A DNA stretch of 42,041 nucleotides from positions 1 to 42,041 of the IMG/VR virus record IMGVR_UViG_3300017707_001954, one strand, 5' to 3'. This document shows, in pieces, positions 1,865 through 42,041 of the stretch. Made by a program: the position numbers and the translations under genes. Numbering within the stretch: the first letter of the stretch is position 1; the number at the start of each line of letters is the position of its first letter. The notes below the pieces were generated by a model. The model made no database searches and had not been told where the DNA came from. It was given only the letters and a program-made list of their open reading frames with translations. This DNA comes from a virus. Lineage: Duplodnaviria > Caudoviricetes.

Positions 1865-2160
1865 ACTACCATCATCACTACCTAAAACCTCGTCAGAATC
1901 AATCAGAATCCGTCAGAATTAAAATGCCACAAAATGCCCACGCACAAAAGACTTAAACACACCACCCATGCGCAGCAAACCCTTGTATTTGCGAGCCCGC
2001 AGCGCACACCGCCTTGATTCTCAAAGCCTCACCACCTTGGTTACCCCTCAAGGACTCGAACCTTGAACAACAGAGTCAGAAGCCTGTGCTTTGGGAAATG
2101 TGTCCCTGATAAATCAAGGGATGCAGGAGAAAATGCAACTCACTACCTGCTAGCACTACT
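1865..2160. promoter_or_regulatory. attP region with putative arm-type and accessory-factor repeats
   Basis: Paired ACTACY direct repeats on both sides of the core (1865-1883, 2141-2160). Three tandem 10-mers NNTCAGAATY at 1891-1920. AAAATGCC twice at 1921-1938. Inverted repeat CCCTGATAAATCAAGGG near 2104-2120. Confidence 0.55.
2038..2080 (-). other. att core: 3' half of tRNA-Gln(CUG), anticodon loop to CCA; not a full tRNA
   Basis: Minus strand reads TCTGACTCTGTTGTTCAAGGTTCGAGTCCTTGAGGGGTAACCA: CTG anticodon, T-arm CAAGG-TTCGAGT-CCTTG, CCA end. No matching D-arm or 5' acceptor strand upstream. Confidence 0.85.
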
Positions 2161-10598: not shown

Positions 10599-10804
10599 GC
10601 TTGCACCTCCTGGATGTAGGTGGTTCGCAGGCCATCTGTCACCGCCACCTTGCCACCGCCGCGAGGTTTCAGCCGCGACATAATCACGTCGATGTATTCG
10701 GGGATGAATTGACGCAAGGCCACATACTGCATGTCACTCCCGCGATCTCCGGCCATGGTGGCGGCGATCTCGTCGGGGCTTTGGCCTGGGGGGTCAGAGG
10801 TCAT
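10595..10804 (-). CDS. Hypothetical protein, 69 aa
   Basis: ATGA overlaps with both neighbours. Confidence 0.6.
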   Translation of the reverse strand: MTSDPPGQSPDEIAATMAGDRGSDMQYVALRQFIPEYIDVIMSRLKPRGGGKVAVTDGLRTTYIQEVQA

Positions 10805-13800
10805 GCGGGTTTGAAGATCATGGCGCGTTTCATCCAGCCGGTCACGATGAGATCATTGCCATCCCAGCAGACGCCAAGAGGATAGCGCATGTTTTGAGAG
10901 TTCGGGCTGCCGCCTGCCCACTCGCCCGCACTGCTGCTGATGCTGGCCTGTCCGAGCACGGCATCCATGCTTGCACCGCTGGCAGTAGGAAGTTCATAGA
11001 AAAGGGCCACGCGACTGTTTTGGTAGTCGCCCACGGCCACTTGGCCGAGATCATTGCAAGCTACGGAGCGTGGCGTTGAGCAGGTAGTAGCGGTGCTGCC
11101 GCTGCCGGTCACGCCAAAACCGCTTTGAAGTAGGACATGAGTAGCGCTGGCATTGTTTACCGTAGGGATGCTGGCAAAGACGCACACGCGGTTGTTGCTG
11201 CTATCTGCCACGAGCAGTTTGCCATCGGGCATTTCAGCCACGTCGTAAGGCTTGTTGAACTTATTAGCCGCGCTGCCAGTGGTGGCCACAGTAAATCCGG
11301 TCTGGCCGATCACGACATTAGCGGCAACACCGTTGGTTGTTGGCACACTATTCCATACGAGCACGCGGTTATTACCACTGTCGGCCACGATGAGCTTGCC
11401 GCTGCTCGTCACGCGGATGCCGTAGGGGGTATTGAGCTTGGCGGCCGTGAGTCCGCTGGAATAGGTGGTGAGGTTCGGTTGACCGATGACATTGGCCGGT
11501 GTGCTGCTGGCGCTGACAGGTGCGGCATAGCGGAGAATGCGGTGCGTGTTGACGCCACCGACTAAGAGGTCTTCACCACTCCATGCGACCGTTGACCAAC
11601 CATTCGAGACGCCGCCCGTAATATCGAGGAGGAGGAAATCAGCGGCAGCACCATTGGCGGTCGGCACACTGTTCCACACATAGACAGAGCCATCACTAAC
11701 ATTCACGATGGCCAGTTTGCCTGCGGGGGAGATCGCAGCGCCCCAGACGACATTGGACATCAGGCTGGATGTATTGGAAGCCACCTGATCATCAAAGTCC
11801 GCCTGCCCGAGCACCACGTTGGCGCTTTGGTAGGTGGTCAGGGCATCCGCCGGGGTGCCGGTGCCGCTGATGGTGATGTCGTAAGTCTGCTTGCTCACCG
11901 TGCTGGCGTTGTTCGTCAGTCGCAGGGTGCAGGTGCGGACACCGTAGCCGCTTGGGTTGAAGGTGACTTTGAAGGTCGTGGTGCCATCGGCAGCGATGCT
12001 GGCGGGCAGGCTGATGCCGCTCACAGTGAAGTCCGCACTGTTGCCGCCCGTGGTGGTGCATCCGGTCACGGAAAGGCTGCTGGTGCCGAGATTGCGGATC
12101 GTGAAGGTGCGCTCAATGGTGCCGCCCGATAGCAAGGCATTGCCGAAGTCAAGGCTCCCACCATCCGCGATAACGGTGGTGGCGGGATACTCCACCTGGA
12201 TGTCCGGCCCGGTGCCGCCGATGCCGTTCAGGGTGATATTTGTCGGGCTTTCGTCGCTGTCACTGCTGGTGATGGCCAGCGTGGTCGTGCGGGCTCCGGT
12301 GGCAGAAGGGTCAAAGGTGACAGTGAAGGTGGTGCTGGCTGCCGCGGCGAGGCTGGTGCTGCCGAGAGCGCTCACGGTGAAGTCACCCGCATTGCCACCC
12401 GACACTGCCGCAGCCAGACTGCTGAGCGTGCCTGCACCGCGATTGTAGATGGTAAAAGTTTTTATCCGCGTGTTGCTACCTGCGGCATCCACAGTGCCGA
12501 AGTCATAGCTGTGGCTGGTTTCCACCACCAGGCCGAGCGGGTCCTGAACCTCGATCTCGCCCACGGCCACACCAGTCCCGCTGAGGGTGATGGTGTAGGG
12601 ATCTTCGTCCAAGTCGGTGTTGATGATGGTCAGCGTGCTTGTCAAAGTGCCGCCAGCGGTGGGGATGAAGGTTACTTGCAGTGTCGTGCTGCCGCCTGCG
12701 GCCACGGTGCCATCCGGCGCGGTCGTGAGCTGCCAGTCACCGGCTCCCACGGCAGCGGCCACCGTCAAATTCCCCGTGCCGGTGTTCTCGATGGTGATCG
12801 TATAGGCTTGGCTGCTACCGGTGTCCACACTGCCAAAGGCGATGGTGCTGCCGGTGGCGTAGCTGGTGCCGCTGTATTTGACATTGATCTCCGGATCCGT
12901 GGCGGTGCCAGTGAGGGAGATCACGAGCGGGCTGGCCGGGTCATCGCTAGCCAAGCTGAGGCTTGCGGTGCGACTGCCAGAGCCCTGCGGGTTAAAGGTC
13001 AGGTCAAAGGTGGCGGTGCCGCCATTGGCTGCCACGGTGGTGGGCAGGGTGCCCACGATGAAATCCGTGTTGTGCGTGCCGCTGAGGGTGGCGGCGAGGT
13101 TGTTGAGGCTGAGCACGCCATTGTTCAGGATCGTCAGGGTCAGCGTGGTGCTGGCCTCCACGGCGGTGCTGGCAAAGGAGAGCGCGGAGCTGATGACGCT
13201 GCTGCCATTCTTCAGCACAAGCTCACTCTGCGGAGTCGCCATGAATTGCAGCGTGTTGCTGGTCAGGCCGGAGCGTTTGACCCGCGCCCAGTAGATCTGC
13301 CCACGGGTGAGGCCGGTCACGGTGTATTCCAGCGGGGCAGTGCTGTTCACCGCCTGATCCTTCAGCAGCAATCCACGGGTGAAGTCGGGAGAGGTGGCCA
13401 CATCCAGCGTGGTGCCACTGCCGGCCACATCCCAAGCCAGGTCCACGCTAGTGCTGCTCACGGGGGTATAGCTGAGGTTCAGCCCCGTGCTAGCACCTGC
13501 GCTGCTGGGGGCATCCAGCTCGATGATGGTGGTCATCCATCCGCCCATGTAGGGCCGGACATCCACATCAAGGATGATCGTGCCGGGCCAGACCTCGGGA
13601 TCGGTAGCGGGCTCGGTGAAGGTAAAGCCACCATCCGTAAACACGAGCTGCGGGTGCAGACATGCCTGCGTGCTGACTTGGAAACCTTCCGGCCCTTGGA
13701 AGTAAATGGAGCGCGGCAGCATCCGAGTCGGCTCGGGGATGTAGGGCTTGCTGCCACTGGTCGGCCATGAGGGGTTGCCGTCGTAGTCGGGCATCACGCG

Positions 13801-14661
13801 GGTCCACATCTCCGTCATGCGGCCTTTGCACGGGCCGTTGTAGCTGTCGGTTTTCCAAATCGGATAGGTGATGTAGCCACGGATGGCGGAGTAGATATTG
13901 CCCGCGTCCTCATAGATGGGCAGCACGAAGTAGCCGCTGAGCACGGGCGGCCAGTAGTGCCGCATGGGGCGCGGGATGATGCGGCTGGCCTTGCCATTCA
14001 CCGCTTGTCCGGCGATGCCGGGAGCCTTCCGCACGGTCCGCACGAGCCAGTCGGGATTGATGCCATCCACCTCGGCCATGCTGCCGCTGTCATCCGGCGC
14101 ACTGCCATGGGTGCCCGCAGGCACGAGCGTGCGGGTCACGGTGCGGATCTCGCCCGATTCGGAGTCGAGTGATTCCGACACGACACCCTCCCGGATGTCA
14201 CGCCAGATGCGGGTGATCACGATGTAAAGGCCATCCAACGGCTGCGGCAGGCGGTCCTGCCGCTGCTCGATGAAGGTCCACTCATAGGCACTGCTAAAGG
14301 TGGGCGGCGTCTCGCTCGGCGTCGTTTCACTCGGCACCCAGCCGGAGCGTTTCACGATGAAGGTCTGCCGAATCTGCGGGCCGTATTGGTCCGACAGCAC
14401 CTTGCTGAACTCGAAATTGTAATCTTCCTGGTCACTCCGCACCTTCGCATAGATGGGATACTGAAAGCCTTCCTCCGTGGGGTCAAAGCCCACGAGCTCA
14501 TAGTCTGGGAACTCACTGGCTGGAGCATACGCCTGCCCGATGGTCATGCGGGCGGCCACGTCATCACGCACCTTCTTCCCACGCAGGAGCAGGTCCTTCA
14601 GCGGCGAGTCAAAGCGGAGCGTGCGGTTGGGATCATCTCCCGTGAGATTCCAGGCGGCCAT
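10801..14661 (-). CDS. Tail/receptor-binding protein: phage N-terminal region, FN3, four Ig-like (ASH/choice-of-anchor-D type) repeats, C-terminal NHL beta-propeller
   Basis: FN3 motif YTVTGLTRGQIYWARV. Four repeats of F-G/A..T-I-x-N-x-G...L...F-x-P...T-x-x-L-x-I..D..P...L-x-G-x-G. NHL repeats LIVADSGNNRVLVW and LLVADSSNNRV with VLGQ spacers. Confidence 0.75.
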   Translation of the reverse strand: MAAWNLTGDDPNRTLRFDSPLKDLLLRGKKVRDDVAARMTIGQAYAPASEFPDYELVGFDPTEEGFQYPIYAKVRSDQEDYNFEFSKVLSDQYGPQIRQTFIVKRSGWVPSETTPSETPPTFSSAYEWTFIEQRQDRLPQPLDGLYIVITRIWRDIREGVVSESLDSESGEIRTVTRTLVPAGTHGSAPDDSGSMAEVDGINPDWLVRTVRKAPGIAGQAVNGKASRIIPRPMRHYWPPVLSGYFVLPIYEDAGNIYSAIRGYITYPIWKTDSYNGPCKGRMTEMWTRVMPDYDGNPSWPTSGSKPYIPEPTRMLPRSIYFQGPEGFQVSTQACLHPQLVFTDGGFTFTEPATDPEVWPGTIILDVDVRPYMGGWMTTIIELDAPSSAGASTGLNLSYTPVSSTSVDLAWDVAGSGTTLDVATSPDFTRGLLLKDQAVNSTAPLEYTVTGLTRGQIYWARVKRSGLTSNTLQFMATPQSELVLKNGSSVISSALSFASTAVEASTTLTLTILNNGVLSLNNLAATLSGTHNTDFIVGTLPTTVAANGGTATFDLTFNPQGSGSRTASLSLASDDPASPLVISLTGTATDPEINVKYSGTSYATGSTIAFGSVDTGSSQAYTITIENTGTGNLTVAAAVGAGDWQLTTAPDGTVAAGGSTTLQVTFIPTAGGTLTSTLTIINTDLDEDPYTITLSGTGVAVGEIEVQDPLGLVVETSHSYDFGTVDAAGSNTRIKTFTIYNRGAGTLSSLAAAVSGGNAGDFTVSALGSTSLAAAASTTFTVTFDPSATGARTTTLAITSSDSDESPTNITLNGIGGTGPDIQVEYPATTVIADGGSLDFGNALLSGGTIERTFTIRNLGTSSLSVTGCTTTGGNSADFTVSGISLPASIAADGTTTFKVTFNPSGYGVRTCTLRLTNNASTVSKQTYDITISGTGTPADALTTYQSANVVLGQADFDDQVASNTSSLMSNVVWGAAISPAGKLAIVNVSDGSVYVWNSVPTANGAAADFLLLDITGGVSNGWSTVAWSGEDLLVGGVNTHRILRYAAPVSASSTPANVIGQPNLTTYSSGLTAAKLNTPYGIRVTSSGKLIVADSGNNRVLVWNSVPTTNGVAANVVIGQTGFTVATTGSAANKFNKPYDVAEMPDGKLLVADSSNNRVCVFASIPTVNNASATHVLLQSGFGVTGSGSTATTCSTPRSVACNDLGQVAVGDYQNSRVALFYELPTASGASMDAVLGQASISSSAGEWAGGSPNSQNMRYPLGVCWDGNDLIVTGWMKRAMIFKPA

Positions 14662-26314: not shown

Positions 26315-28318
26315 TCAGTAGCCAAATTCTTCATTTTTGCGGCGTTTGAAGCGCTGGGTGTCAATGTGGCGTGGGTTGGCGGAGAGGAGGATGCGGAGGG
26401 TGTCGATGGGGTCCTTCCAGGCGCTGCTGCTGCTGCCGGCCACGGCGTAGCCGGGATAGTTTTGCAGGGCTCCGATGAGGTTGGTGCAGTGCTTGGCAAT
26501 GCGGATTTTTGGCCCGCGCCCTTGCTGGGGGTCTATCTCCATGTCTCCGGTGGCGTTGTCGATGTGGGTGTTTTCGCGGTCCCACATGAGCATGGAGTTG
26601 ATATTCTGCTCGCCGCTGAGCACGTTGTCTGCGGCGGCAGTGCCTCCGGCTTGGCGGAAGTAGAGTTTGTTGTCCTCCATCCACTCGATGATGGTTTTGC
26701 TCTCTTCCTGGCCTTCCACGACAGTGGCGGTGGATCGACTGTCGGAGATGCGGCGATCATAGACATGCAGCCAGGTGTCTTCGATGAGGCCTTGCTTGCT
26801 TTCGAGCTTCTGCCATCCGGCGAGCTTTTCTTCGATGCGGCGGATTTCGGCGGCGCGGAAGGCGTAGCCGCAGGGCCATTGCTTTTGGGCGTTGCCTTTG
26901 ATGCCGAGGCCGTTTTTGCCGCCGGACTTGGCCCACTCGCAATCCTCGCCGGTATAAAGGGCGGCACCGGGGACGTTCACGACATCGTTGGTTTGCGGAT
27001 ATTCGTGGGCGATGAGGATGTCACCCGGCCCCATCTTGCCCCAGGCCTGCCCAAGCACGAAGGCCCAGAGCTGGAACCACGCACGGCCACCGCTGGCGTT
27101 TGGATCTTGCGACATCCACCACGTCCCAAACTCGGCAGGTGGCAGCCATTGCGGCACGGGGCGGACATGCACCTGAAGGTTGAAGTTGGGGAAGGGGCTG
27201 TCCGCGGTGCCTTCGGCGATGCCGTAGCATTTCCAAAGGATTTTGGAGCGAGGGCTTTTGAGTTCAGACTTTTTCATGCCCTCCCAGTTTCCGCCGAGGG
27301 GATTCTGCCAGGCGTAGATCCACATGAAGCGACGGGTGGGCACGGCGCAGTGAACGACGCAGGGCAGGCGCTCTCCCCCGATGATGGTGCCCTTGGCATC
27401 TCGGCGCGGCAGTAGCTCTGGGTCAGCCTCGATCTCCTTCATGGTGACGGCTTTGTCCATGAACCAGCGGACGGTTTCGGTGTAGCCGTCGCGGAAGGTG
27501 TAGGTGACGAACTGCACGGCGACCATGAGCCGCCCGATGAGGTCACGCGGGAACCACATTTCAGGGTCCGCTTCTTTCTGAGCGAGCAATTCCCGCCACT
27601 TGGGCATCATCTCATGCGTCCACTCGGCGGCGGTCAGCAGTCGGTTTTCTGTGGCTTCAAGCACGTTGACTGGCACGCACTCATCGCCCCAGGAGGTGCA
27701 GGGGCGGGGGCCTTCGAGCTTGCCGATGTCTTGCGCCCAGGTTTTAAACCTGCACACGGCACCGCTGGTCACGGCGCACTCGTTGTTGGTGAAACCTCCG
27801 GCGGCATCGTAACCCATTTTTTGGTTGGCCTGCTTTTTGAGGCGGCCTGTTTCGGTCTTGTATTCGTTGGGCTGCCAGAAGCGGATGGCGGCTTCCACCA
27901 CTTCGGCGCTTTTGTCATCGTCAATGCTGAAGGTCCAGAAGGTGCGCTGGTGCTCGGGCATGTCTGGGCGGCACTGCTCCATCGCTAGCGTGTAGAAGCG
28001 AGCCAGCGATTGGGTTTTGCCGGAGCCATTGGAGCCCCCGATGCCCATGGTGACGGGCACGCCGGGATTCTCCACCCGCAGGCGGCAGGTCTCCCAAAGG
28101 ATGTCATCCCAGGAGCGGAAGAACCACCCGTGGTTAAACGGGTCCTCTGCGGCTTCTTGGATGCGAGCTGCCCGCGCCGCCACGGCAGCCAGCGCATCCT
28201 CAGCCCCGAGCGCCATCAGCTCCTCCACCGTCAAGGGTGGCAGCATTCCATGCGGCCGCTGCTCTGCTTGCAGCAGCTCGAAGGCGAGGCGTATTTCGTC
28301 AGTCATGGGGTTATTCAA
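26315..28318 (-). CDS. terL: Terminase large subunit
   Basis: Walker A GGSNGSGKT, Walker B SWGDE, nuclease-domain SQDP and C-terminal KDPIDTLR. Confidence 0.85.
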   Translation of the reverse strand: MNNPMTDEIRLAFELLQAEQRPHGMLPPLTVEELMALGAEDALAAVAARAARIQEAAEDPFNHGWFFRSWDDILWETCRLRVENPGVPVTMGIGGSNGSGKTQSLARFYTLAMEQCRPDMPEHQRTFWTFSIDDDKSAEVVEAAIRFWQPNEYKTETGRLKKQANQKMGYDAAGGFTNNECAVTSGAVCRFKTWAQDIGKLEGPRPCTSWGDECVPVNVLEATENRLLTAAEWTHEMMPKWRELLAQKEADPEMWFPRDLIGRLMVAVQFVTYTFRDGYTETVRWFMDKAVTMKEIEADPELLPRRDAKGTIIGGERLPCVVHCAVPTRRFMWIYAWQNPLGGNWEGMKKSELKSPRSKILWKCYGIAEGTADSPFPNFNLQVHVRPVPQWLPPAEFGTWWMSQDPNASGGRAWFQLWAFVLGQAWGKMGPGDILIAHEYPQTNDVVNVPGAALYTGEDCEWAKSGGKNGLGIKGNAQKQWPCGYAFRAAEIRRIEEKLAGWQKLESKQGLIEDTWLHVYDRRISDSRSTATVVEGQEESKTIIEWMEDNKLYFRQAGGTAAADNVLSGEQNINSMLMWDRENTHIDNATGDMEIDPQQGRGPKIRIAKHCTNLIGALQNYPGYAVAGSSSSAWKDPIDTLRILLSANPRHIDTQRFKRRKNEEFGY

Positions 28319-33620: not shown

Positions 33621-34238
33621 ATGAGCACCGCCCTCACCATCCGCCCGCAGTCCGCCAAACGCCCCGACCGCAAAACCCGCAAAGAAGCCACCCCAGAGCA
33701 AAAAGAAGCCGCAGCCGCACGCCGTGCCGGCATCAAGCAGCTCTGCGCCATCGTCAAAGCCCTGCCCGTAGAAAAGCGCGTCCTCCTCGCCGCCTCCTAC
33801 GGCATCCGCAGCGCAGAGGGCCGCGAGCTCTCCCCCTTCAATCAATGCCTCCTCGTTCATCAAAACTCATCCGTTTCCATCGTGGGCGGCTTCCAGCAGT
33901 GGAAGAAACTCGGCCGCAGTGTCAAGAAAGGCGAGCGCTCCCTCGCCATCTGGGTCCCCTGCGGCAAGCAGGCCGAAAGCGCCAATGACGCCGCCGCGAA
34001 TCCCGACACCGACAACGACAAATTCTTCATCCTCGGCAGCGTCTTCGACATCACCCAGACAGAGACCGACGAGGAAAAAGCCGCCCGCGTAGCCGGTGAG
34101 ACCCTCGCCCTCCCAGCCCCAGCGCTCGCCCTGCCCTATCGCGCCGACGCCTTCGACATCGAAGCCGAGCCCATCACCGACGAGCCCGAGCCCGAGCCCG
34201 CCGCCAGCATCCAAGACGAATTCACCCTCTGCGACTAA
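33621..34238 (+). CDS. ArdC N-terminal-like (DUF1738) ssDNA-binding/anti-restriction protein
   Basis: SPFNQCLL...GFQQWKKLGRSVKKGERSLAIWVP...VFDITQT. Confidence 0.8.
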   Translation: MSTALTIRPQSAKRPDRKTRKEATPEQKEAAAARRAGIKQLCAIVKALPVEKRVLLAASYGIRSAEGRELSPFNQCLLVHQNSSVSIVGGFQQWKKLGRSVKKGERSLAIWVPCGKQAESANDAAANPDTDNDKFFILGSVFDITQTETDEEKAARVAGETLALPAPALALPYRADAFDIEAEPITDEPEPEPAASIQDEFTLCD

Positions 34239-34304
34239 ACCACCCCACCCAGCGCGGGCGGTTCCACCCCTCCCGCCTCTTCACTCTTTCCCTCCTTCCC
34301 TCTC

Positions 34305-34634
34305 ATGAACAAATCTGAAGAACTCGCCGCCTTTCACGCATTCCGCCGCAGCATGCCGCCGGCCAGCTATCTGCGCCCATGGCTCGACAGCATCGCCGAT
34401 GAAATAGAATCCAGTTTGACCAGCGATTATTTCCCGTGCGCCTCCATTCACGAAGCGCAAAAGCAGGCCGCCGCCATCCTCCAGGATGCACGAGCCCACG
34501 CCGCAGAAGTGACGCAGACAGCCAAAGACCAGGCCGCCAAAGAAACCGCCGCCGCATCCAAAGACATCAATGACGCCATGCGCCGCGCCTTGTCAGCCGT
34601 CGCCGCCGCTGAACGTGCCCTTTCCAATTACTAA
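34305..34634 (+). CDS. Hypothetical helical protein
   Basis: 109 aa with codon usage like neighbouring phage genes. Confidence 0.6.
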   Translation: MNKSEELAAFHAFRRSMPPASYLRPWLDSIADEIESSLTSDYFPCASIHEAQKQAAAILQDARAHAAEVTQTAKDQAAKETAAASKDINDAMRRALSAVAAAERALSNY

Positions 34635-34653
34635 CCCATTCCCCTTCCCCATC

Positions 34654-35625
34654 ATGAGCACCATGCAATTCCTCCGCCACAAAGTCACCGGCATCAAATA
34701 CATACGCCTCGCCAGCGGCTCCATGATCCCCGTTTCCGACCTCCCGCGCCTCGCCGGCAATGACGCCGACCTGCGCAGCATCGAGATCAAGTGCGAAACG
34801 TGCCACACCTGGCACCCCTGCCACGCCATGCACACGCACCCCACCGGCCTCCAGTGCCGCGCCTGCATCGCCACCGCAGCCGCCGCCGCCAGCCCAGAGA
34901 GCGAGCACGCCGCCGCCATGCGCAAAGCCGCCGCCCTCCTACGCCTCGCCCAGTCAGACAACCCGCACGAAGCCGCCCTCGCCGCCTCCCGCGCTCAAGA
35001 AATCATCGACCGCTACAAACTCAACCTTGCCGCCCTCGATAGCGCCCCCAGCGAGGAACCCGCCGAAGAAATCCGCAACTTCAAAGACGATCCCCTCGAC
35101 ACCGGCGGCCTGTGGAAAGCCCTCCTGGCTCAAGCCGTCGCCAACGTCAACCAATGCAAAGTTTACACCTCCGGCGGCAATGTCCACATCATCGGCCGCC
35201 CGTCTGACGTGGCTATTGTCCGCCCCTTCCACGCCTACCTCGCCGGAGAGATCGAGCGCCTAGCCTCCCGCCACTGCCGCGGCAACTCCCGCACCTATTG
35301 GAACAACTTCCGACTTGGAGCCGTGGAAACCATCAAGCAGCGCCTCCAGGCCTCCCTCGCCTCCACCGTCGAAACAGTAAAGGCCGAAGCCCTCGCCGCC
35401 GGTAACAGCGCCGCCCTCGTCACCGTCACAAACTCGCTGGCCATCATCGAAAAGCGCAAACAAGAAGTCGAAGCCTGGGCACGGCAAAACATGAACCTTC
35501 GCAGCCGCACCGCCCGCAGCAGCTACAACAACGCCGGCCGCGAAGCAGGCCGCGCCGCCGGCCATAGCGTCAACCTCCACCGCTCCGCCGGAGCCCTCAA
35601 CAGCACCCGCCGCGCCCTCGCCTAG
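34654..35625 (+). CDS. DUF2786-containing protein with an N-terminal Cys/His cluster
   Basis: KAAALLRLAQSDNPHEAALAASRAQEIIDRYKL; WNNFRLGAV; AGREAGRAAG. Confidence 0.8.
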   Translation: MSTMQFLRHKVTGIKYIRLASGSMIPVSDLPRLAGNDADLRSIEIKCETCHTWHPCHAMHTHPTGLQCRACIATAAAAASPESEHAAAMRKAAALLRLAQSDNPHEAALAASRAQEIIDRYKLNLAALDSAPSEEPAEEIRNFKDDPLDTGGLWKALLAQAVANVNQCKVYTSGGNVHIIGRPSDVAIVRPFHAYLAGEIERLASRHCRGNSRTYWNNFRLGAVETIKQRLQASLASTVETVKAEALAAGNSAALVTVTNSLAIIEKRKQEVEAWARQNMNLRSRTARSSYNNAGREAGRAAGHSVNLHRSAGALNSTRRALA

Positions 35626-35627
35626 CC

Positions 35628-36224
35628 ATGCACTCCCCAGAAATCACCGCCGACTTCCTCCACCGCCTCGCCCTCCTCCTGGATGGCGAGGCGGTCACCC
35701 GTCCCGGCTGCAGTGACGAGCGCCTCCCCGTCATCCGCCTGCATTCACCCCGCGTCCTGCTCTCCATCTCAAATTCATGGGACGCCCGCCCCAAGTGGCG
35801 CGCCTCCGTCATGGACTGGGAAGGAAAGCACATCCACGGCAGCCCCAGCGCCAACTTCACCAGCACCCGCCCCATCGAAGAAATTGCCGCCGATCTCCGC
35901 CGCCGCGTCCTAGATCCCGCCCGCGCCAAGCTCATCCAGCACGCCACCAGCGCCGCCGCCGCCGCCCAAAAGCACCAGCAGGCCGCCCACCGCCTCGCCG
36001 AGCTAGAAACCATCCTCGGCCCCACAAAGCCCTATCACAACGGATACGCCAACCTTCCCGGTTTCCGCATCCCACACGAGCACCACCTGCAAGACCGTGA
36101 CGGCCCCTGGCCATCCTTCCAAGCAGAAATCACCCTTCACAGCTTTGCCGCCCTCAAAATGATCGCCGCCATCATCGCCGAAGATCACCGCTTGAACAAT
36201 CAAGCGCGTGAATGCAGTGAATAA
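35628..36224 (+). CDS. Hypothetical protein
   Basis: 198 aa, starts 2 nt after the previous stop. Confidence 0.6.
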   Translation: MHSPEITADFLHRLALLLDGEAVTRPGCSDERLPVIRLHSPRVLLSISNSWDARPKWRASVMDWEGKHIHGSPSANFTSTRPIEEIAADLRRRVLDPARAKLIQHATSAAAAAQKHQQAAHRLAELETILGPTKPYHNGYANLPGFRIPHEHHLQDRDGPWPSFQAEITLHSFAALKMIAAIIAEDHRLNNQARECSE

Positions 36225-36294
36225 CAGCCCCCCCAAACAAAAGCGCCCGGCGGGCTATCACCTCCGCCGGGCCATGCACCGAATCCATCAGCCC

Positions 36295-36537
36295 ATGAGC
36301 CAGCCACAGCCAGCCACCCCCAGCATCCCCCAGCTCACCGCCGCCGGCAAGCCCAGAAAACGCGCCCCCGGCGCCGGAGCCCCCAAAAAGCACCGTCAGC
36401 ATCACCTCTCCCGAGTTGATGCCACCACCCTCCACACACTCCAAGCCCTCGCCACCGCCTGGCACTGCACCTTAGCAGATGCCATCGCCCGCGCCGCCAT
36501 CCAAGCCCACAAAACCCTCAAAAAGCCGCCAGCATAG
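36295..36537 (+). CDS. RHH/CopG-like DNA-binding protein
   Basis: RKRAPGAGAPKK...RVDATTLHTLQALATAWHCTLADAIARA. Confidence 0.55.
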   Translation: MSQPQPATPSIPQLTAAGKPRKRAPGAGAPKKHRQHHLSRVDATTLHTLQALATAWHCTLADAIARAAIQAHKTLKKPPA

Positions 36538-36649
36538 CCACAGCCCCCCATATCACCCTTCCCCACCGAAAACCACCCCCAAAACCGCCGCACCCCGGCG
36601 GTTTTCTCATATCCACACCCCAGCCAAACCCGCCTACCAACAAATAAAA

Positions 36650-36665
36650 CTTGATTTCAATCAAG
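36650..36665 (+). promoter_or_regulatory. Palindromic operator overlapping a probable -35 box upstream of the repressor-like gene
   Basis: CTTGAT-TTCA-ATCAAG, with TTGATT as -35 in an AT-rich gap. Confidence 0.5.
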
Positions 36666-36690
36666 ACTAACTTTACACATCCACCACCCC

Positions 36691-37134
36691 ATGAGCTACC
36701 TCGCCGTCCAAGTCACCGAATACCTTCGCACCTGCCCACATTCCGCCCGGGAGATCGAAGAGCGCGCCAAACTGCCCCGCATGACCCTCGGCACCATCCA
36801 GCGTGACGGCCATCCCCGGCCCGACCGCTTCGGCCAGCTCCTGAAAGCCGTCGATGACCACACTGCCCGCCAATGGCTCGAAGCCTACCTGCTCGACGAC
36901 TGCCCCGAAGCCTGGCTTCCCCGCGTCAAAATCCTCATCGAAGGCCTGCAACATATACAGACCACAGACACCAGCCACCTCGCCGAGCCCCACAAATCCT
37001 ACGGCCCCCCAGCCGACCCCATCGCCGCCACCGCCCGCGCCCTCCACCGCCTCCAGTCTGCCATGGCCAAAGACCGCGAGCTCAGCACCTGGTTCCTCCA
37101 AACCGTCACCCTCATCCTCGGCCCCGAAGAATGA
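36691..37134 (+). CDS. XRE/CI-like HTH repressor candidate
   Basis: SAREIEERAKLPRMTLGTIQRDGHPRPDRFGQLLKAV; its stop overlaps the distal boundary of the cassette array. Confidence 0.6.
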   Translation: MSYLAVQVTEYLRTCPHSAREIEERAKLPRMTLGTIQRDGHPRPDRFGQLLKAVDDHTARQWLEAYLLDDCPEAWLPRVKILIEGLQHIQTTDTSHLAEPHKSYGPPADPIAATARALHRLQSAMAKDRELSTWFLQTVTLILGPEE

Positions 37135-37232
37135 ACGATCAAACTGTGCCGACCGAGGGCGGCGATAAAAAGCTATGAAATCACAAACGACGACACCGCC
37201 GACCGAAGGTTGGCACCAGTGGCTGGTTCGGC
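37130..37232 (-). repeat. attC of cassette 6 (distal)
   Basis: Minus strand: R'' GCCGAAC, 5 nt, L'' ACTGGTGC (extra G) ... L' GCACAGT, 6 nt, R' GTTCATT. Confidence 0.85.
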
Positions 37233-37462
37233 TTTGGAAGGCCGTGACGCATTCGCACACATGGCAGAGGATCAATGATGCCTCAATCATGGATGTAAAT
37301 GACACATATCCGCCAACTCATATCGACTACATCAGCCCGAAACGCTGGTGTCCTGAATGCGGGCGGATGGAATGGTATGTAGGGCCTGAAGTCTGCGGCG
37401 GAGATCGAGCACGATGGGTGCCGTTCTCGCCATGGACTGACGATGATGAGCCGAACCGCTAG
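37175..37462 (+). CDS. Cassette 6 ORF, hypothetical with H-x-H...CPEC metal-binding motif
   Basis: Starts in its own attC loop; ends EPNR* inside the next attC. Confidence 0.65.
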   Translation: MKSQTTTPPTEGWHQWLVRLWKAVTHSHTWQRINDASIMDVNDTYPPTHIDYISPKRWCPECGRMEWYVGPEVCGGDRARWVPFSPWTDDDEPNR

Positions 37463-37543
37463 GGCTATGCCGCCCGCAACTGAATCGGACCATGGAAAGT
37501 AACAGCACAGCTATTGAAGGTCGTCATCAGCCCCTTGTTCGGC
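37450..37543 (-). repeat. attC of cassette 5
   Basis: Minus strand: GCCGAAC-AAGGG-GCTGATGA ... GCATAGC-CCTAGCG-GTTCGGC. Confidence 0.8.
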
Positions 37544-37845
37544 CTCTTCGGGCGAAGGACATGGCCGCATTCTTCAACGCCGACCCAACACCGGAAACGC
37601 TGGTCAAGATCGCCTGCGCCATGGACGCCGAGACATCGGAAATCCTCAAATCAAGGGGTATCCAGAAAGACGCCTCGTTCTTATCGCTCCTGAAAGAGCA
37701 GGACAACAAGTGGCAGGCTTTCGCCCGTCGCTGCCCAGACGTGAACCCGATGGCATTCCGGCTAGTCATGCAAAAACTCCACCCAACCACTGCGGCCTTT
37801 GCTTGGCCGAACGACAGAATCCACCCACATGATGGGCGTAAATAG
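37492..37845 (+). CDS. Cassette 5 ORF, hypothetical
   Basis: Starts in the attC loop; ends WPNDRIHPHDGRK* inside the next attC. Confidence 0.7.
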   Translation: MESNSTAIEGRHQPLVRPLRAKDMAAFFNADPTPETLVKIACAMDAETSEILKSRGIQKDASFLSLLKEQDNKWQAFARRCPDVNPMAFRLVMQKLHPTTAAFAWPNDRIHPHDGRK

Positions 37846-37905
37846 ACATCCGCTTTCACGCAAGACACTGCCGCCCATCATGTTGGGTGCGATGCCTTGT
37901 TCAGC
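37806..37905 (-). repeat. attC of cassette 4
   Basis: Minus strand: GCTGAAC-AAGGC-ATCGCACC-CAACATGATGGGCG ... CGCCCATCATGTG-GGTGGAT-TCTGTC-GTTCGGC; two extrahelical bases. Confidence 0.9.
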
Positions 37906-38026
37906 TTTGACCGCAGCAGAGGACGCTCTGCCGATGGCCTCTGGGCCGGAACTGCGGGCAGGAGTGGCAGACGTAAACCCACCCCGCTACCTCTCGGCGT
38001 AACAACAGCGGAGGAAACTTTCGACC

Positions 38027-38275
38027 ATGAACAACATACACTGCATCCCAGTCGGAAACGGCGAGCCAATACATGAATGTCACACGCTCTGCTGGTGCCA
38101 TCCGGTGAAGGACACCGAATCCGTAAATCTCTATGCCCACAACGCGAAAGACTGCCGCGAGAAGTGGGAGCGCCAAGGACTCGAAATGCCATCTGAGTCC
38201 TTGTGGGTGACTGTGGAAGAGAAGCTGAACGAATCAAGTGATGGCGCGGCGGGCTGCGGCCCGAACTCGCCTTGA
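38027..38275 (+). CDS. Cassette 4 ORF, Cys/His-rich small protein
   Basis: GGAGG upstream; H-x-x-P...H....CWCHP...H motif; stop inside the next attC. Confidence 0.7.
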   Translation: MNNIHCIPVGNGEPIHECHTLCWCHPVKDTESVNLYAHNAKDCREKWERQGLEMPSESLWVTVEEKLNESSDGAAGCGPNSP

Positions 38276-38312
38276 GAGCTTATCGCCGTCGGCCATCCAC
38301 GTCTTGTTCGTG
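38224..38312 (-). repeat. attC of cassette 3
   Basis: Minus strand: CACGAAC-AAGAC-GTGGATGG-CCGACGGCG ... CGCCGCG-CCATCAC-TTGATTC-GTTCAGC. Confidence 0.85.
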
Positions 38313-38344
38313 GGCGGCGGACTGGCACGAAAGACACCGAAACC

Positions 38345-38581
38345 ATGATCACAATCCCCGAATCTTACATGCTGCTGAACTGCGGAAAGTGCGGTCACGA
38401 GGCTGACTTCTTCGACTTCTGTCGCACGCCGATCACCGGCGAACTTCCTAGCGGAACCCACCAATGCCCTAAGTGCCGGAAGGCATGGAAAATGGAAAAG
38501 TATGAGGAAGGCCAATGGCTCGCCACTGGCCAATACATCCCACCAGGCCGCCGTGCTGTCTCAATCCCCACCATCCTCTAA
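38345..38581 (+). CDS. Cassette 3 ORF a, zinc-ribbon protein
   Basis: CGKC ... CPKC. Confidence 0.7.
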   Translation: MITIPESYMLLNCGKCGHEADFFDFCRTPITGELPSGTHQCPKCRKAWKMEKYEEGQWLATGQYIPPGRRAVSIPTIL

Positions 38582-38583
38582 TC

Positions 38584-38880
38584 ATGTCCGATCTACCTGA
38601 AACACTCTGGGGGCCGCTGTGGCGGCACATGCACAACGAGCACGGCCTGATCCTGCTCGATGACGAATGCAACCAAATCGCGCAAGCCGCCGATGAAGCA
38701 AGGATGGCCGCTGGAACGCCAGTGGCAATGATCCTGATCAACGCGCTGCGGAGCCTGAGCAAAAAGGAGCTGGTGACGCTGGGCAAGGCAATCGCGGATC
38801 GCTGCGGACACAGGCTCGAACCAGCAATTTGTCCCACGAACGCCGCTGGTGAGGCGACGGCGAGCGATACGCGCCGATGA
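38584..38880 (+). CDS. Cassette 3 ORF b, hypothetical
   Basis: ATG 2 nt after the previous stop (MSDLPETLWGPLW); ends PTNAAGEATASDTRR* inside the next attC. Confidence 0.65.
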   Translation: MSDLPETLWGPLWRHMHNEHGLILLDDECNQIAQAADEARMAAGTPVAMILINALRSLSKKELVTLGKAIADRCGHRLEPAICPTNAAGEATASDTRR

Positions 38881-38927
38881 CATGATAGACCAACTTCGAG
38901 CCGTTGCCTCCAGCAGCATGGTTCAGC
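38835..38927 (-). repeat. attC of cassette 2
   Basis: Minus strand: GCTGAAC-CATGCT-GCTGGAGG-CAACGGC ... GCCGTCG-CCTCACC-AGCGGC-GTTCGTG. Confidence 0.85.
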
Positions 38928-38945
38928 CCGAAACCTCCCACGACT

Positions 38946-39215
38946 ATGACCATACAGAGCCTCACGCAAGATCACGAAGCCGCCGCCAAAGCACTCATGG
39001 ACGGCATCAAAGAGCTGATACCTGTCGGCACAAAACTGCGAATCCTCATGCGGGGGCGCGGTGGCAAAACCATTGACGCTGAAGTCATCTCCCACGGCCA
39101 CGCATGGAGCATCAAGTATCCTCACGAGGTGCATGTGAAGAATCTCAAAACAGGCAAGACTCGCACGATAGATGTCCATCCCGAGTTCGGACACCGCTAC
39201 GAGGTCATTGGCTGA
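38946..39215 (+). CDS. Cassette 2 ORF, small SH3-like beta protein (hypothetical)
   Basis: MTIQSLTQD...PVGTKLRI...VHVKNLKTGKTRTI; TGA lies inside the GCTGAAC core. Confidence 0.65.
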   Translation: MTIQSLTQDHEAAAKALMDGIKELIPVGTKLRILMRGRGGKTIDAEVISHGHAWSIKYPHEVHVKNLKTGKTRTIDVHPEFGHRYEVIG

Positions 39216-39272
39216 ACGCTTGAGATCAGCCACTGAGCCTAAGCGAAGTTGGACTGCATCTCATTGTTCTCT
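39211..39272 (-). repeat. attC of cassette 1 (62 bp, minimal size)
   Basis: Minus strand: AGAGAAC-AAT-GAGATGCAGTCCAACT ... AGTGGCTGATCTC-AAGC-GTTCAGC. Confidence 0.85.
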
Positions 39273-39302
39273 GACGTTGGTAAAAAATCTCCAAATAAGG
39301 AC

Positions 39303-39331
39303 TTGCACAATGTAGCTTAATGCTACATAAT
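39303..39331 (+). promoter_or_regulatory. Cassette-internal sigma70 promoter with an overlapping palindromic operator
   Basis: TTGCAC-17 bp-CATAAT; ATGTAGC-TTAAT-GCTACAT (39310-39328); GGGGA then ATG 39340. Confidence 0.75.
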
Positions 39332-39339
39332 GGGGACAT

Positions 39340-39567
39340 ATGAAACCACCATTACTACAAATCAAAATCGGGAGTCAGGCACGCATCACAGCCATTAGTC
39401 TTCAACATGCCCGAGCAATTTGGGAGCAGTATCGCGCCGACAAAGATCTTGGCGCAAGCAATGCACCCAAAGTTCTTCTCTATCTGGATGGAGTGAAGAT
39501 CGGACACATGAGCTACAATGGCCGTATCTGGGACTTGGACAATGTAGAAATGGAGGCAGCAGCGTGA
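39340..39567 (+). CDS. Cassette 1 ORF a, hypothetical (HMSYNGRIW motif)
   Basis: Own promoter and RBS; coupled to the next gene by a GTGA overlap. Confidence 0.75.
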   Translation: MKPPLLQIKIGSQARITAISLQHARAIWEQYRADKDLGASNAPKVLLYLDGVKIGHMSYNGRIWDLDNVEMEAAA

Positions 39568-40235
39568 GAGTCCTTATCGGCTATGAATCATCAGGCATGA
39601 CTCGCGAAGCCTTTAGGCGGCGCGGGCATGATGCGTGGTCGTGCGATATACAGCCCGCTGACGATAACTCTTCGTATCACTATCAATGTGACATTCGCGA
39701 TGTCGTCCACATGGGGTGGGACCTAGCCATCTTCCACCCATCATGCACTTACCTTACGTGTTCCGCAGAGTGGGCTTATGGTGACGGTCCATATCACATG
39801 AACCTAAAGATAGGAACGCTTGTGGGCAAAGCCAGACGGCAAGCCCGCGAAGCGGCGATAGCCGAAGTAAAATGGCTGTGGGCGCTGCCGATTGAGCGCA
39901 TAGTGATCGAAAACCCAAAAGGCGCTTTATCAACGCGATGGAGGAAGCCGACACAAATAATTCAGCCTCACGAGTATGGTGACGACGCCAGCAAAGAAAC
40001 GCACATCTGGAGCCGGGGATGCTCTCTTATGACCCCGACGTTGCATGTAGCTCCTCGCATCGTGGAGCATCCAAAAGGATCAGGAAAACTGGTCAAGCGC
40101 TGGGCCAATCAAACCGACTCAGGACAGAATAAACTTACGCCATCACAAACCCGATGGAAAGAGCGAAGCAAGACCTATCCCGGTATTGCTGAAGCCCTCG
40201 CATCGCAACTTCTCCAAGATTTTCGCCTCGTATGA
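39564..40235 (+). CDS. Cassette 1 ORF b, short phage-type C5-cytosine DNA methyltransferase-like protein
   Basis: MRVLIGYESSG (motif I variant), AWSCD, FHPSCT (PC-motif variant), IENP. GTG start after GGAGG. Confidence 0.75.
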   Translation: MRVLIGYESSGMTREAFRRRGHDAWSCDIQPADDNSSYHYQCDIRDVVHMGWDLAIFHPSCTYLTCSAEWAYGDGPYHMNLKIGTLVGKARRQAREAAIAEVKWLWALPIERIVIENPKGALSTRWRKPTQIIQPHEYGDDASKETHIWSRGCSLMTPTLHVAPRIVEHPKGSGKLVKRWANQTDSGQNKLTPSQTRWKERSKTYPGIAEALASQLLQDFRLV

Positions 40236-40447
40236 CGCCAGATCAATACAAAGCCACCCGTGAGCGCCTCGGCACACAAGCCGAGGTCGCTCTCATGCTC
40301 GGCGTGAATCGCGTGACTGTCGCGAAGCGGGAGAACGGCACCATGACCATCACAAACGAGGCAGTCCTAGCGATTCAGTCGCTCCGAAGGCCGAGACGTA
40401 AACGCAAGTCAGAGAACACTGATTATCCCGACCAGCTTTCCAGATAG
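40232..40447 (+). CDS. Cassette 1 ORF c, XRE HTH protein whose C-terminus crosses attI
   Basis: MTPDQYKATRERLGTQAEVALMLGVNRVTVAKRENG. Confidence 0.85.
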   Translation: MTPDQYKATRERLGTQAEVALMLGVNRVTVAKRENGTMTITNEAVLAIQSLRRPRRKRKSENTDYPDQLSR

Positions 40448-40450
40448 CCA
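40411..40450 (-). other. attI site (core GTTCTCT on the minus strand; crossover between 40416 and 40417)
   Basis: GTCAGAGAAC (40408-40417) is the exact reverse complement of GTTCTCTGAC (39266-39275) of the first attC. No attC hairpin follows, and it lies ~60 bp upstream of intI. Confidence 0.8.
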
Positions 40451-40475
40451 CCCCAAAACCAGAAACACCACCGCC

Positions 40476-41498
40476 ATGACACTCCCCGAAATGGTTGAAC
40501 AAGTCCGCATCGTCTGCCGAATGCGCCGACTTTCCCGGCACACCGAGGATTGTTACAGCGGCTGGATCACACGCTTTGCCGCGCACGTCCGCACCTGTCC
40601 GGAACTCAGCCGCGACGAGCGCGTGCGCACCTACCTCGAAAAGCTCGCCCCGCGCACCTCCGCAAGCACCCAAAACCAAGCCCTGAACGCCATCGTCTTC
40701 CTGTATCGCGATGTCATCAAAGAACCCTTGGGTGACCTTGGCAAATGGGCACGGGCCAAACGCCCCGCCCGCCTGCCCACCTGGCTATCACCGCAGGAAA
40801 TGCAGCGCCTGCTTGATCAAATGCCGCCCGGCACCCGCATGATGGCCGAACTCGCTTATGGCTCGGGCCTGCGCGTGGCCGAGCTGCTCGCCCTCCGCAT
40901 CAAAGACATCGACCTTGATGCCCATCTCGTCACCGTCAGAGGCGGCAAGGGTGACAAAGACCGCATCACCGTCCTACCCCGCAGCCTCATGCATCGGCTT
41001 CACGCCCATCTCAACCGCATCCGCGTCCTCTATGATGGCGACCGCGCCGCCAGCGCCCCGCCCATCTACCTCCCCGATGGCCTCGAGCGCAAGTTTCCCA
41101 ATGCCGGCCGCGAGTGGGCATGGTTTTGGCTATGGCCAGCCGCCAGCCACAGCACCGATCCCCGCACCGGCATCCACCGCCGCCATCACGTCCACGAAGA
41201 CACGCTCGGCAAAGCCCTCAAACTTGCCACCCGCAAAGCCGGACTGCACAAACGAGTCACCGCCCACACCCTCCGGCACAGCTTTGCCACCAATCTCCTC
41301 GCCAGTGGTGCCAGCATCACCCAAGTGCAGGAACTCCTCGGCCATAACAGCGTCGAAACCACCCAGGTCTATCTTCACTGCGTCCCCCAGTTCGCCGCCA
41401 CCATCACCAGCCCGCTTGATGCTCTGCCAGCAGCGTCAAACATCCTTCCCTTTCACGTCCCATCCTCACAGTCCCAGCCCCTTGCCCGCACCGCATGA
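40476..41498 (+). CDS. intI: Integron integrase (IntI family)
   Basis: SASTQNQALNAIVFLYR, YGSGLRVAE, GGKGDKDR, HTLRHSFAT, LLGH..V.TT.VY, plus the integron-specific insertion IYLPDGLERKFPNAGREWAWFWLWP...DPRTG..RRHH. Confidence 0.95.
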   Translation: MTLPEMVEQVRIVCRMRRLSRHTEDCYSGWITRFAAHVRTCPELSRDERVRTYLEKLAPRTSASTQNQALNAIVFLYRDVIKEPLGDLGKWARAKRPARLPTWLSPQEMQRLLDQMPPGTRMMAELAYGSGLRVAELLALRIKDIDLDAHLVTVRGGKGDKDRITVLPRSLMHRLHAHLNRIRVLYDGDRAASAPPIYLPDGLERKFPNAGREWAWFWLWPAASHSTDPRTGIHRRHHVHEDTLGKALKLATRKAGLHKRVTAHTLRHSFATNLLASGASITQVQELLGHNSVETTQVYLHCVPQFAATITSPLDALPAASNILPFHVPSSQSQPLARTA

Positions 41499-42041
41499 GC
41501 ACCACCCCAGCCACCATCATCACCCCGCTTGGCCTTGAAGTGCCCACACCGCCCGCCCATGAGTGGCGCGAGCACACAACCGAGCGCTGGCGCGACCGTG
41601 ACCCCGAGAGCCACGCATTCGCCCTCCACCTCGTCCGCCAGCTCGGCATCACTAATAAAACCCAAATCACCGAGCTAGTCGATCAGCACCGCGCCGCCCG
41701 CCAGCTCCCCGGCATCTCCCGCAACAGCATCATCGCCCTCTTCAACGACACCACCGAGTTCAAGCCCGGCGAAATAGACGAAATCATCCGCCGCCGCTCC
41801 AGTCTCCTCACCGCCGACACCCTCGACAAAATCGAAACCCTTCTCGACAAAGCCAAAGCCGCCAAAGACCTCGGCGCCGCCGCCATGGCCCTCACCGCCG
41901 TTTACAACGTCAAACAAATCTCCAGCGGCGGCGCCACAAGGATCAGCGGCCAAACCAGCGACAGCCAAAAAGCCCGCACCTTCGACGAACTTCGCGCCCG
42001 CGCTCGCGCCCTACTCAGCACCCCCCAGCCGCCCGAACTTC
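41495..42041 (+). CDS. Partial ORF (182+ aa, runs off the end), possible terminase small subunit-like protein
   Basis: ATGA-coupled to the intI stop, with no stop before the window end. The helical AKDLGAAAMALTAVYNVKQISSGGATRI segment resembles TerS-type proteins. Confidence 0.5.
   Translation, partial: MSTTPATIITPLGLEVPTPPAHEWREHTTERWRDRDPESHAFALHLVRQLGITNKTQITELVDQHRAARQLPGISRNSIIALFNDTTEFKPGEIDEIIRRRSSLLTADTLDKIETLLDKAKAAKDLGAAAMALTAVYNVKQISSGGATRISGQTSDSQKARTFDELRARARALLSTPQPPEL

Follow-up and report, generated by a model that had tools for sequence, protein, structure and literature searches.

Integrons, in which an integrase gene (intI), its attI site and an array of attC-bounded cassettes stand together, are treated as bacterial devices, and the locus described here raises the question of whether a phage can own one. 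It lies in the window analysed, namely the whole virus record IMGVR_UViG_3300017707_001954, a stretch of 42,041 nucleotides with a tailed-phage gene content, for which a preliminary description had proposed a complete integron within a temperate phage genome. We find that positions 37130-41498 hold a genuine complete integron by its IntI, attI and attC components, which is resident in a phage lineage and does not follow the canonical layout. As judged by their coding signal, the cassette genes are on the bottom strand of the attC sites, run towards intI and are co-directional with the phage operon. This inverted polarity, missed by the preliminary description, is the most distinctive trait of the array.

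The integron integrase gene extends from 40476 to 41498 on the + strand and encodes an intact protein of 340 amino acids, as indicated by its family score, its alignment with a known structure and its invariant residues. The protein reached 344.1 bits against TIGR02249, whose cut-off is 265, and stayed far under the cut-offs of the Xer families (141.5 against 335.15 bits for XerC and 139 against 329.6 bits for XerD); since these were not passed, an assignment as a XerC/XerD recombinase was rejected. The top match in the PDB was IntI4 (2A3V, E 3e-65), aligned over residues 9-316 with the insertion LPDGLERK...WFWLWP...RRHH included, and the intact IntI with an integron-specific insertion announced in the preliminary description is indeed there. 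Residues R133, K158, H264, R267, H290 and Y299, which we take to be the catalytic residues of IntI, are invariant in 10 out of 10 aligned relatives. The ratio of nonsynonymous to synonymous substitutions (dN/dS) of intI was 0.08-0.13 in four of six pairs, the remaining two being saturated, and by this measure the gene is under purifying selection. The fraction of C at third codon positions is 0.57 in intI, 0.51-0.68 in the backbone genes and 0.23-0.46 in the cassette genes; the codons of intI resemble those of the phage backbone and not those of the cassettes. The end of intI overlaps the next phage gene by an ATGA at 41495-41498. This overlap had been described as a coupling of the two genes, but it is missing in most relatives and a conserved translational coupling was therefore rejected.

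A simple site at 40411-40428 on the - strand, with GTT as R core and a likely L box at 40422-40428, places the crossover at 40416/40417, 59 bp before the intI start, where an attI core about 60 bp upstream of the gene had been anticipated. We assign this site to attI because it lacks a partner with which to form a hairpin and because conservation among relatives is limited to the right side of the crossover: the motif is kept upstream of intI, and the DNA to the left of the crossover varies. With the intI start 59 bp from the crossover, a cluster of attC sites lacking an integron integrase (CALIN) was rejected. Six AAC...GTT hairpins of 62-103 bp, with the R''-L''...L'-R' architecture and extrahelical bases, were found at the cassette boundaries, all six of which equal those previously proposed. 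On the - strand and starting from attI, cassette 1 (39217-40416) has a 62-bp attC at 39211-39272, cassette 2 (38841-39216) a 93-bp attC at 38835-38927 to which sites in L006 are related, cassette 3 (38230-38840) an 89-bp attC at 38224-38312 of a site family also present in L221 and L222, cassette 4 (37812-38229) a 100-bp attC at 37806-37905, cassette 5 (37456-37811) a 94-bp attC at 37450-37543 and cassette 6 (37136-37455) a 103-bp attC at 37130-37232. The core of this distal site contains the stop codon of the repressor-like gene in the window, as in L002 and L035.

The attC sites were called with a custom grammar (strict, strict variant and relaxed) and not with the covariance model of IntegronFinder. 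Four of the six sites passed the strict grammar, and 1000 shuffled sequences gave no site in 964 cases, one site in 35 and two sites in one. Five sites passed one of the strict grammars, the attC of cassette 1 doing so through the variant, and all six passed the relaxed one. A loose hairpin score alone had no discriminating power, with 5 sites in the sequence and as many as 5 in 100 shuffles, and neither ranking by energy nor loose hairpin scanning told the sites apart from the background. As it is the 3' arm of the + strand that bears the unpaired bases, the + strand is the bottom strand, and the array, read on the - strand, points away from intI. This direction was set by the extrahelical bases and the attI position, R''/R' complementarity being blind to direction, and folding energies did not consistently favour the bottom strand. 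In all six cassettes, the R'' 7-mer is fully complementary to a 7-mer at the opposite cassette end, as expected if each cassette was once a circle. The strong C skew of the flanks is absent from the array, as had been noted before (GC skew of -0.09 to +0.02 versus -0.30 to -0.41). Rfam gave no match over 36500-42041, and the short direct repeats seen there appear to be chance occurrences.

The polarity of the cassette genes was determined on attI-anchored cassettes with a coding score trained on bacterial open reading frames (ORFs). Five of the six window cassettes were inverted and one gave no call. Among 52 cassettes of related phages, 38 were inverted, none was canonical and 14 gave no call, and the canonical layout, in which the genes occupy the attC top strand and point away from intI, was rejected on these counts. 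Cassettes next to distant viral IntIs, taken from IMG/VR records with the viral status assigned there, were inverted in 66 cases out of 86 (7 canonical, 13 without call). By contrast, the arrays of Verrucomicrobia genomes had 17 canonical and 4 inverted cassettes out of 24 (3 without call), two of the inverted ones being located in a prophage (L205), and those of other bacteria had 26 canonical and a single inverted cassette out of 32 (5 without call). Family matches were obtained for 16 of 78 ORFs on the inverted strand versus 1 of 64 on the canonical strand; a second set gave 15 of 119 versus 0 of 25, canonical ORFs being included there only at a score of 3 or more. In phage Rctr41k and in L048/L049, the arrays are downstream of intI and carry mostly canonical genes, which again run with the operon. 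The constraint would thus seem to be the co-orientation of the cassette genes with phage transcription.

Natural variants of the locus were found both in metagenome runs, of which 4 of the 24 listed were examined (the two best-matching being freshwater samples, and X1 possibly the source sample of the window itself), and among related viral contigs. In run X4, a phage about 98% identical to the window has cassette 6 replaced by another piece of 279 nt (joint 37135-37454) with cassette 5 unchanged; in the same run, cassette 4 is joined straight to attI (joint 38230-40415, depth 9.6) and cassettes 1-3 are missing. L004, L005 and L006 represent one phage (99.5-99.6% identity) with three different arrays, whose junctions are all at AA|C: the cassette adjoining attI in L004 occupies the fourth place in the other two, and it has a different left neighbour in each array. 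Whole cassettes likewise distinguish L024, L025 and L026, and also L043 from L044, and the match between L002 and the window breaks off at 37126 and resumes at 40414. L003 and L006 have in common a two-cassette block of 1011 bp at 99.8% identity, though their intI regions are only 79% alike. Cassettes are thus gained, lost or swapped whole at the G|TT crossover among near-identical phages and, judged by this natural variation, the integron appears functional.

The arrangement itself is also maintained among relatives. The order repressor, array, intI and gene for a terminase small subunit-like protein (terS-like), a synteny that the preliminary description proposed to look for, recurs with different cassettes in L002 (IntI 92% identical), L021-L023 (76%) and L035-L036 (48%). 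At least two strict attC sites were present upstream of intI in 42 of 83 viral loci, by a hand count that includes redundant contigs and in which many of the other contigs end too near intI. The attI motif is directly upstream of intI in most close relatives, and the gains map there. The module, which in the window is remote from the likely attP, takes up a number of positions in related phages, and the array is found among replication and packaging genes in L008, L012, L019, L020 and L024-L026. At 1100-1620 of L019, after the repressor-like gene, and at 570-1680 of L027, a second cluster of attC sites was observed, oppositely oriented and a long way from intI. The attC and first gene of cassette 3 recur in L221 and L222; in the latter (6108-7080), the integrase is only 32% identical, the attI motif is similar and the cassette is related to cassette 3. 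In five of seven other viral loci (L220, L223-L226), this first gene, at 76-83% identity, has no detectable attC upstream, which may be relevant to the birth or decay of cassettes.

We then asked where this IntI comes from. Among the best 120 of 206 IntI protein clusters (E <= 1e-90), the identity to the window IntI was 63-96% and no cluster had a contig longer than 44,219 nt. A scan of GTDB genomes (18 of 64 parts; best 80 of 501 matches) gave only one sequence above 51% identity, L084, which is located in a prophage-like stretch. An IntI match was present in 60 of 145 genomes of the likely host family, Verrucomicrobiaceae; apart from L084, none exceeded 53% among the matches listed, and many contained an internal stop, often a single TGA. 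In phylogenetic trees, the window IntI fell into a clade of viral contigs and L084 (support 0.947; SH-aLRT 92), and a wider clade (SH-aLRT 99) added two genome entries, both with a primase-like gene after intI and one located on a contig that also carries tail genes. This long-branch type of IntI followed directly by a primase-like gene was seen in L171, L172 and L205, from two genomes, the contig of L205 having tail genes and an inverted array. The window IntI thus belongs, by these trees, to a phage/prophage clade, and the domestication by phages suggested in the preliminary description agrees with this clade, with the low dN/dS and with the backbone-like third codon positions. Because the other viral IntIs fall in separate clades, the trees also suggest repeated acquisition of IntI by phages. 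In GenBank, 9 of 50,697 phage records had an IntI-like match, all below 45% identity.

The module was also compared with mobile integrons (classes 1-5). No transposase match was obtained among the 44 ORFs of the window and no terminal inverted repeats flank the module, in agreement with the earlier statement that no transposon surrounds the array; the IntI is 41% identical to IntI1, and a mobile integron was rejected. Regarding regulation, no exact match to a Verrucomicrobia LexA motif was present in the window, nothing upstream of its intI came within two mismatches of this motif, and near-matches in relatives overlap cores or are weak. A crude scan of 36400-42041 detected no consensus promoter (cassette promoter Pc) on the - strand, and inverted genes would not use such a promoter. 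A sigma-70-like promoter match facing intI is found at 39304-39331 (+ strand); it overlies a 6-5-6 palindrome (39311-39327), likely an operator, and the stretch is conserved in relatives.

Cassette 1, which adjoins attI and is for this reason likely the newest, has its own putative promoter and three ORFs on the + strand, at 39340-39567, at 39564-40235 (DNA methyltransferase-like, phrog_757, E 3e-50) and at 40232-40447 (helix-turn-helix (HTH), HTH_3), the last of which runs across the attI crossover. The other cassettes carry + strand ORFs as well: 38946-39215 in cassette 2 (89 aa, with its stop codon in the next core), 38345-38581 (78 aa, two CxxC motifs) and 38584-38880 (98 aa) in cassette 3, 38027-38275 in cassette 4 (82 aa, phrog_2864), 37492-37845 in cassette 5 (117 aa, starting within its own attC and ending within the next) and the candidate 37175-37462 in cassette 6 (95 aa, no family), for which the coding score gives no polarity. 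In several cases, the start of the cassette ORF falls within its own attC and the stop within the next core or past it. Protein searches with cassette 5, cassette 6 and the repressor returned a near-identical contig and one weak match only, and PADLOC matched none of the nine cassette proteins of the window. Cassette 1 appears as a conserved shell (attC, promoter with palindrome, terminal HTH gene) around a variable middle (39217-40416; L004:104-619; L008:5435-6212; runs X1-X3), and because this middle changes without attC boundaries, a second route of exchange operates within the cassette.

In related and distant phages, cassettes encode C5, N6/N4, Dam and D12 methyltransferases, Acb2/Tad1-like proteins (L006, L035), a Mom-like, a Tad2-like and a PAPS-reductase/SspD-like protein, an RNA ligase and HTH regulators, and the cassette of one relative matches SspD in PADLOC. 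Families of this kind are known, or labelled in Pfam, to help phages against host defences, and most cassette ORFs fall in no family. It should also be mentioned that the C5 methyltransferase cassette at 3341-4201 of L020 has an overlapping second frame (3633-4160) that equally matches a methyltransferase family.

Taken together, these results make it likely that the phage-resident IntI itself inserts and excises the cassettes by the standard reaction on the folded bottom strand. All the parts are present, and the natural variants differ by whole cassettes at the crossover. From known integron chemistry, IntI would recombine the folded attC bottom strand with attI, so that new cassettes would land beside intI and attC x attC events would remove older ones. 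The polarity of the cassette genes would allow them to be read with the rightward phage transcription (repressor, array, intI) and not from a divergent Pc; the layout suggests read-through from the repressor-like gene together with cassette-borne promoters, for which the promoter evidence is weak. Among promoterless cassettes, the oldest would then be nearest to the promoter, the reverse of the bacterial gradient. The cassette pool is common to phages of likely Verrucomicrobiaceae hosts, and the locus would likely serve as a swappable site for counter-defence and accessory functions. More speculatively, if replication runs with transcription, the bottom strand would be the lagging-strand template, which could favour recombination, such a position having been linked to higher recombination (PMC5371416). 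A broader conjecture, which we hold to be evenly poised between true and false, is that phages run an integron world of their own, with several domesticated IntI lineages, a flipped pool of ordinary phage genes and counter-defence genes shuffled between phages, mirroring the defence cassettes of bacteria.

Several observations weigh against this interpretation. The variants show that an integron integrase was active but do not tell which; genomes of the host family frequently carry an IntI themselves, and some relatives (L019, L027-L029) have arrays with no intI beside them. The attC at 38835 passes the relaxed grammar only and that at 37450, the weakest fold of the six, folds weakly. The promoter is no better than chance as a pattern (1 match, compared to 1.5 in shuffles). 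With regard to polarity, ORF length alone separated the orientations much less clearly (14 inverted, 6 canonical, 8 ties), and an orientation test with segments cut before stop codons wrongly favoured the canonical layout; the coding score and the family matches superseded both tests. Finally, the methyltransferase-like protein is the only pointer to counter-defence among the nine window cassette ORFs, six of which matched no family; in relatives, too, the majority of cassette ORFs are without family assignment.

Some of these points would fit an array that is real and mobile and is shuffled in trans by a chromosomal IntI of the host, the phage IntI being retained for a different role, for instance the resolution of genome multimers at attI. 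We consider this unlikely: although IntI matches are frequent in the host family, inverted arrays occur without adjacent intI and phage attC sites have been reported as substrates of a foreign IntI1 (PMC9892861), the phage IntI keeps its whole insertion and its invariant residues under purifying selection, attI is retained directly upstream of intI and receives the gains, and many of the host matches contain an internal stop. A different view concerns the cargo, which might consist of lysogenic-conversion genes that protect or benefit the host cell and are not tools for phage growth. The cargo recognised so far (orphan methyltransferases, Acb2/Tad1-like, Tad2-like, Mom-like and RNA ligase genes), the lack of any PADLOC match in the window cassettes and the arrays located amid replication and packaging genes all speak against this view, which appears rather improbable even if the array follows the repressor-like gene in the window, L002, L021-L023 and L035-L036 with no + strand terminator found between them, a relative has an SspD match and the cassettes of bacterial integrons are reported to encode anti-phage defence (bioRxiv 2024.07.02.601686, 2024.07.02.601719).

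The integron could also be a passive passenger, acquired when faulty excision carried along part of a chromosomal integron of the host, an origin documented for Vibrio and Shewanella phage integrons (PMC9892861) and in keeping with an array composition different from that of the backbone. This explanation is largely refuted and very improbable: the GTDB parts and host-family genomes scanned gave no chromosomal IntI above about 53% identity, the codon usage of intI is that of the backbone, most chromosomal arrays are canonical where those of the phages are inverted, and the module lies well away from the likely attP and is found in several places among related phages. It is scarcely credible, finally, that phage and host DNA were fused during assembly. 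The window is a metagenomic contig without terminal repeat and no single listed contig spans all of 34000-42041; however, contig L001 repeats the arrangement at 99.9% identity and joins the window end to the window start, and in run X1 a contig of 18,426 nt covering 34000-40386 overlaps another covering 40357-42041 (depths 76 and 89). Synteny is moreover kept in divergent relatives. Circularity and linkage, which the preliminary description wished to see confirmed, are supported by these contigs, with no linkage break at the junctions. All those checks proposed in that description which could be carried out gave the outcome predicted there. We therefore retain the reading in which the phage carries and probably operates its own integron.

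Because L001 joins both window ends, the phage genome is circular or permuted. Among its products, the capsid protein matches SU10_MCP in Pfam, and an endolysin, the single-stranded DNA-binding protein SSB and DnaB are recognised by PHROG. The gene at 26315-28318 likely encodes the large terminase (terL), as indicated by Atlas look-alikes at 0.98, while a sequence search of the PDB gave no identification for it. A divergent tyrosine integrase distinct from IntI is encoded at 441-1862 on the - strand (phrog_1, E 9e-6, no Pfam match) and likely serves lysogeny, as proposed earlier. Just upstream of it, a likely attP core at 2038-2081 (- strand) is identical over 44 of 44 nt to the 3' end of tRNA-Gln(CTG). 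By BLAST, this core was exact in 4 of 145 genomes from the family of a Verrucomicrobiaceae metagenome-assembled genome (MAG), the tRNA matching being confined to one order; a 46-nt attP pattern with one mismatch allowed matched none of 401 genomes. In L084, the IntI relative and its array are found in a prophage-like stretch joined to chromosomal genes of a Verrucomicrobiaceae MAG. Since the integrase stands beside the tRNA-Gln core and L084 is prophage-like, a temperate life style and a Verrucomicrobiaceae host are both likely, the host assignment leaning also on L084 and L205. No prophage copy of the window phage itself was found, and a capsid protein search in two genomes gave short weak matches in one.

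The third codon positions of the 441-1862 integrase are G-rich, which indicates that the C skew extending from about 33000 round to 2500 follows the strand and not the coding direction. An XRE-type HTH gene at 36691-37134 (+ strand), likely the phage repressor, precedes the array; it had no Pfam, PHROG or NCBIfam match, and Atlas look-alikes with HTH_3/HTH_31 provide a lead. A terminator-like hairpin and then a palindrome at about 36650-36665, possibly its operator, are located at 36587-36690 before this gene, and the operon further upstream (33621-35625) includes an ArdC-like anti-restriction gene and a DUF2786/DUF7168 gene. On the other side, the likely terminase small subunit gene (41495-42041, + strand), whose start overlaps the intI stop, crosses the genome join and encodes 206 aa in L001. 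It has no family match, and the terS-like gene is near terL in L003, L008, L012 and L024; in the window, the two genes are in opposite operons, and in these four contigs they are neighbours. The protein of 1286 aa encoded at 10801-14661 combines three Ig-like (HYDIN/ASH-type) domains with NHL repeats and is probably a virion fibre.

The lineage identified here would add to integrons a phage-specific IntI with over 100 sequence clusters, a flipped layout and cassettes shuffled in nature, and points to a site-specific, homology-independent route to phage mosaicism. Its cassette genes without family form an enriched and precisely bounded set of candidate anti-defence proteins, and the small IntI/attI/attC set is directly testable in standard E. 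coli assays. The cargo gene found with and without attC at 76-83% identity provides material on how cassettes arise and, if phages do have an integron world of their own, such genes in related phages would represent cassette birth or decay in progress. In the open-access literature, subscription papers not being covered, neither an IntI lineage specific to phages nor inverted arrays in phages were found to be described, and the available parts of PMC8876359, PMC8618304, PMC11370490 and PMC13492144 added no such IntI lineage.

With chromosomal and mobile integrons (PMC4889954, PMC5371416), the window shares the IntI insertion, an attI just upstream of intI, an attC top strand opposite to intI and chained R''/R' complementarity. 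It differs from them in cassette genes that occupy the attC bottom strand and run in the direction of intI, in that no Pc, LexA box or transposon was found, and in its diverse attC sites, many of which have GTTC cores. Cury et al. described, besides the usual layout, an inverted integron-integrase group (2016; PMC4889954). As in that group, represented by Treponema, cassette genes and intI have the same direction; however, the window intI (+) is opposite to the attC top strand (-) and the genes are flipped inside the cassettes, so that membership of this group was rejected. The Treponema layout is instead resembled by phage Rctr41k and by L048/L049. In Rctr41k (L230, KX853513.1, 4680-10100), an IntI-like gene annotated xerD is followed on the same strand by several attC-like sites and methyltransferase genes; Table 1 of Qi et al. 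(PMC9892861), which gives their complete integrons, does not include this phage.

Integrons had been presented in the preliminary description as known mainly from chromosomes, plasmids and transposons. They are indeed known mainly from bacteria, but complete integrons in temperate phages were already published by Qi et al. (2023), who reported 3 of them and 17 CALINs in 10,705 phage genomes (PMC9892861). Phage CALINs likewise hold small attC-bounded accessory genes but have no IntI, whereas the window has a bona fide IntI and attI; some of the CALINs of that study might include inverted ORFs. The complete integrons, carried by Vibrio Va_90-11-286_p16, E. coli P1 L-II and Shewanella M16-3, resemble the window by their intI, attI and attC array inside a temperate phage, and methyltransferase cassettes occur in that phage set too. 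However, they consist of a host integron fragment or a class 1 mosaic, or have an IntI with 95% similarity to a chromosomal one. In M16-3, the one we checked, the IntI is host-like, a LexA box is present and the genes run away from intI. A host-derived integron of this type does not describe the window, whose IntI is at most about 53% identical to chromosomal IntIs outside prophage-like stretches in the 18 of 64 GTDB parts and the 145 host-family genomes scanned. Unlike the integrons of Qi et al., it combines an IntI from a phage/prophage-specific clade with inverted cassette genes and with arrays that vary among near-identical phages.

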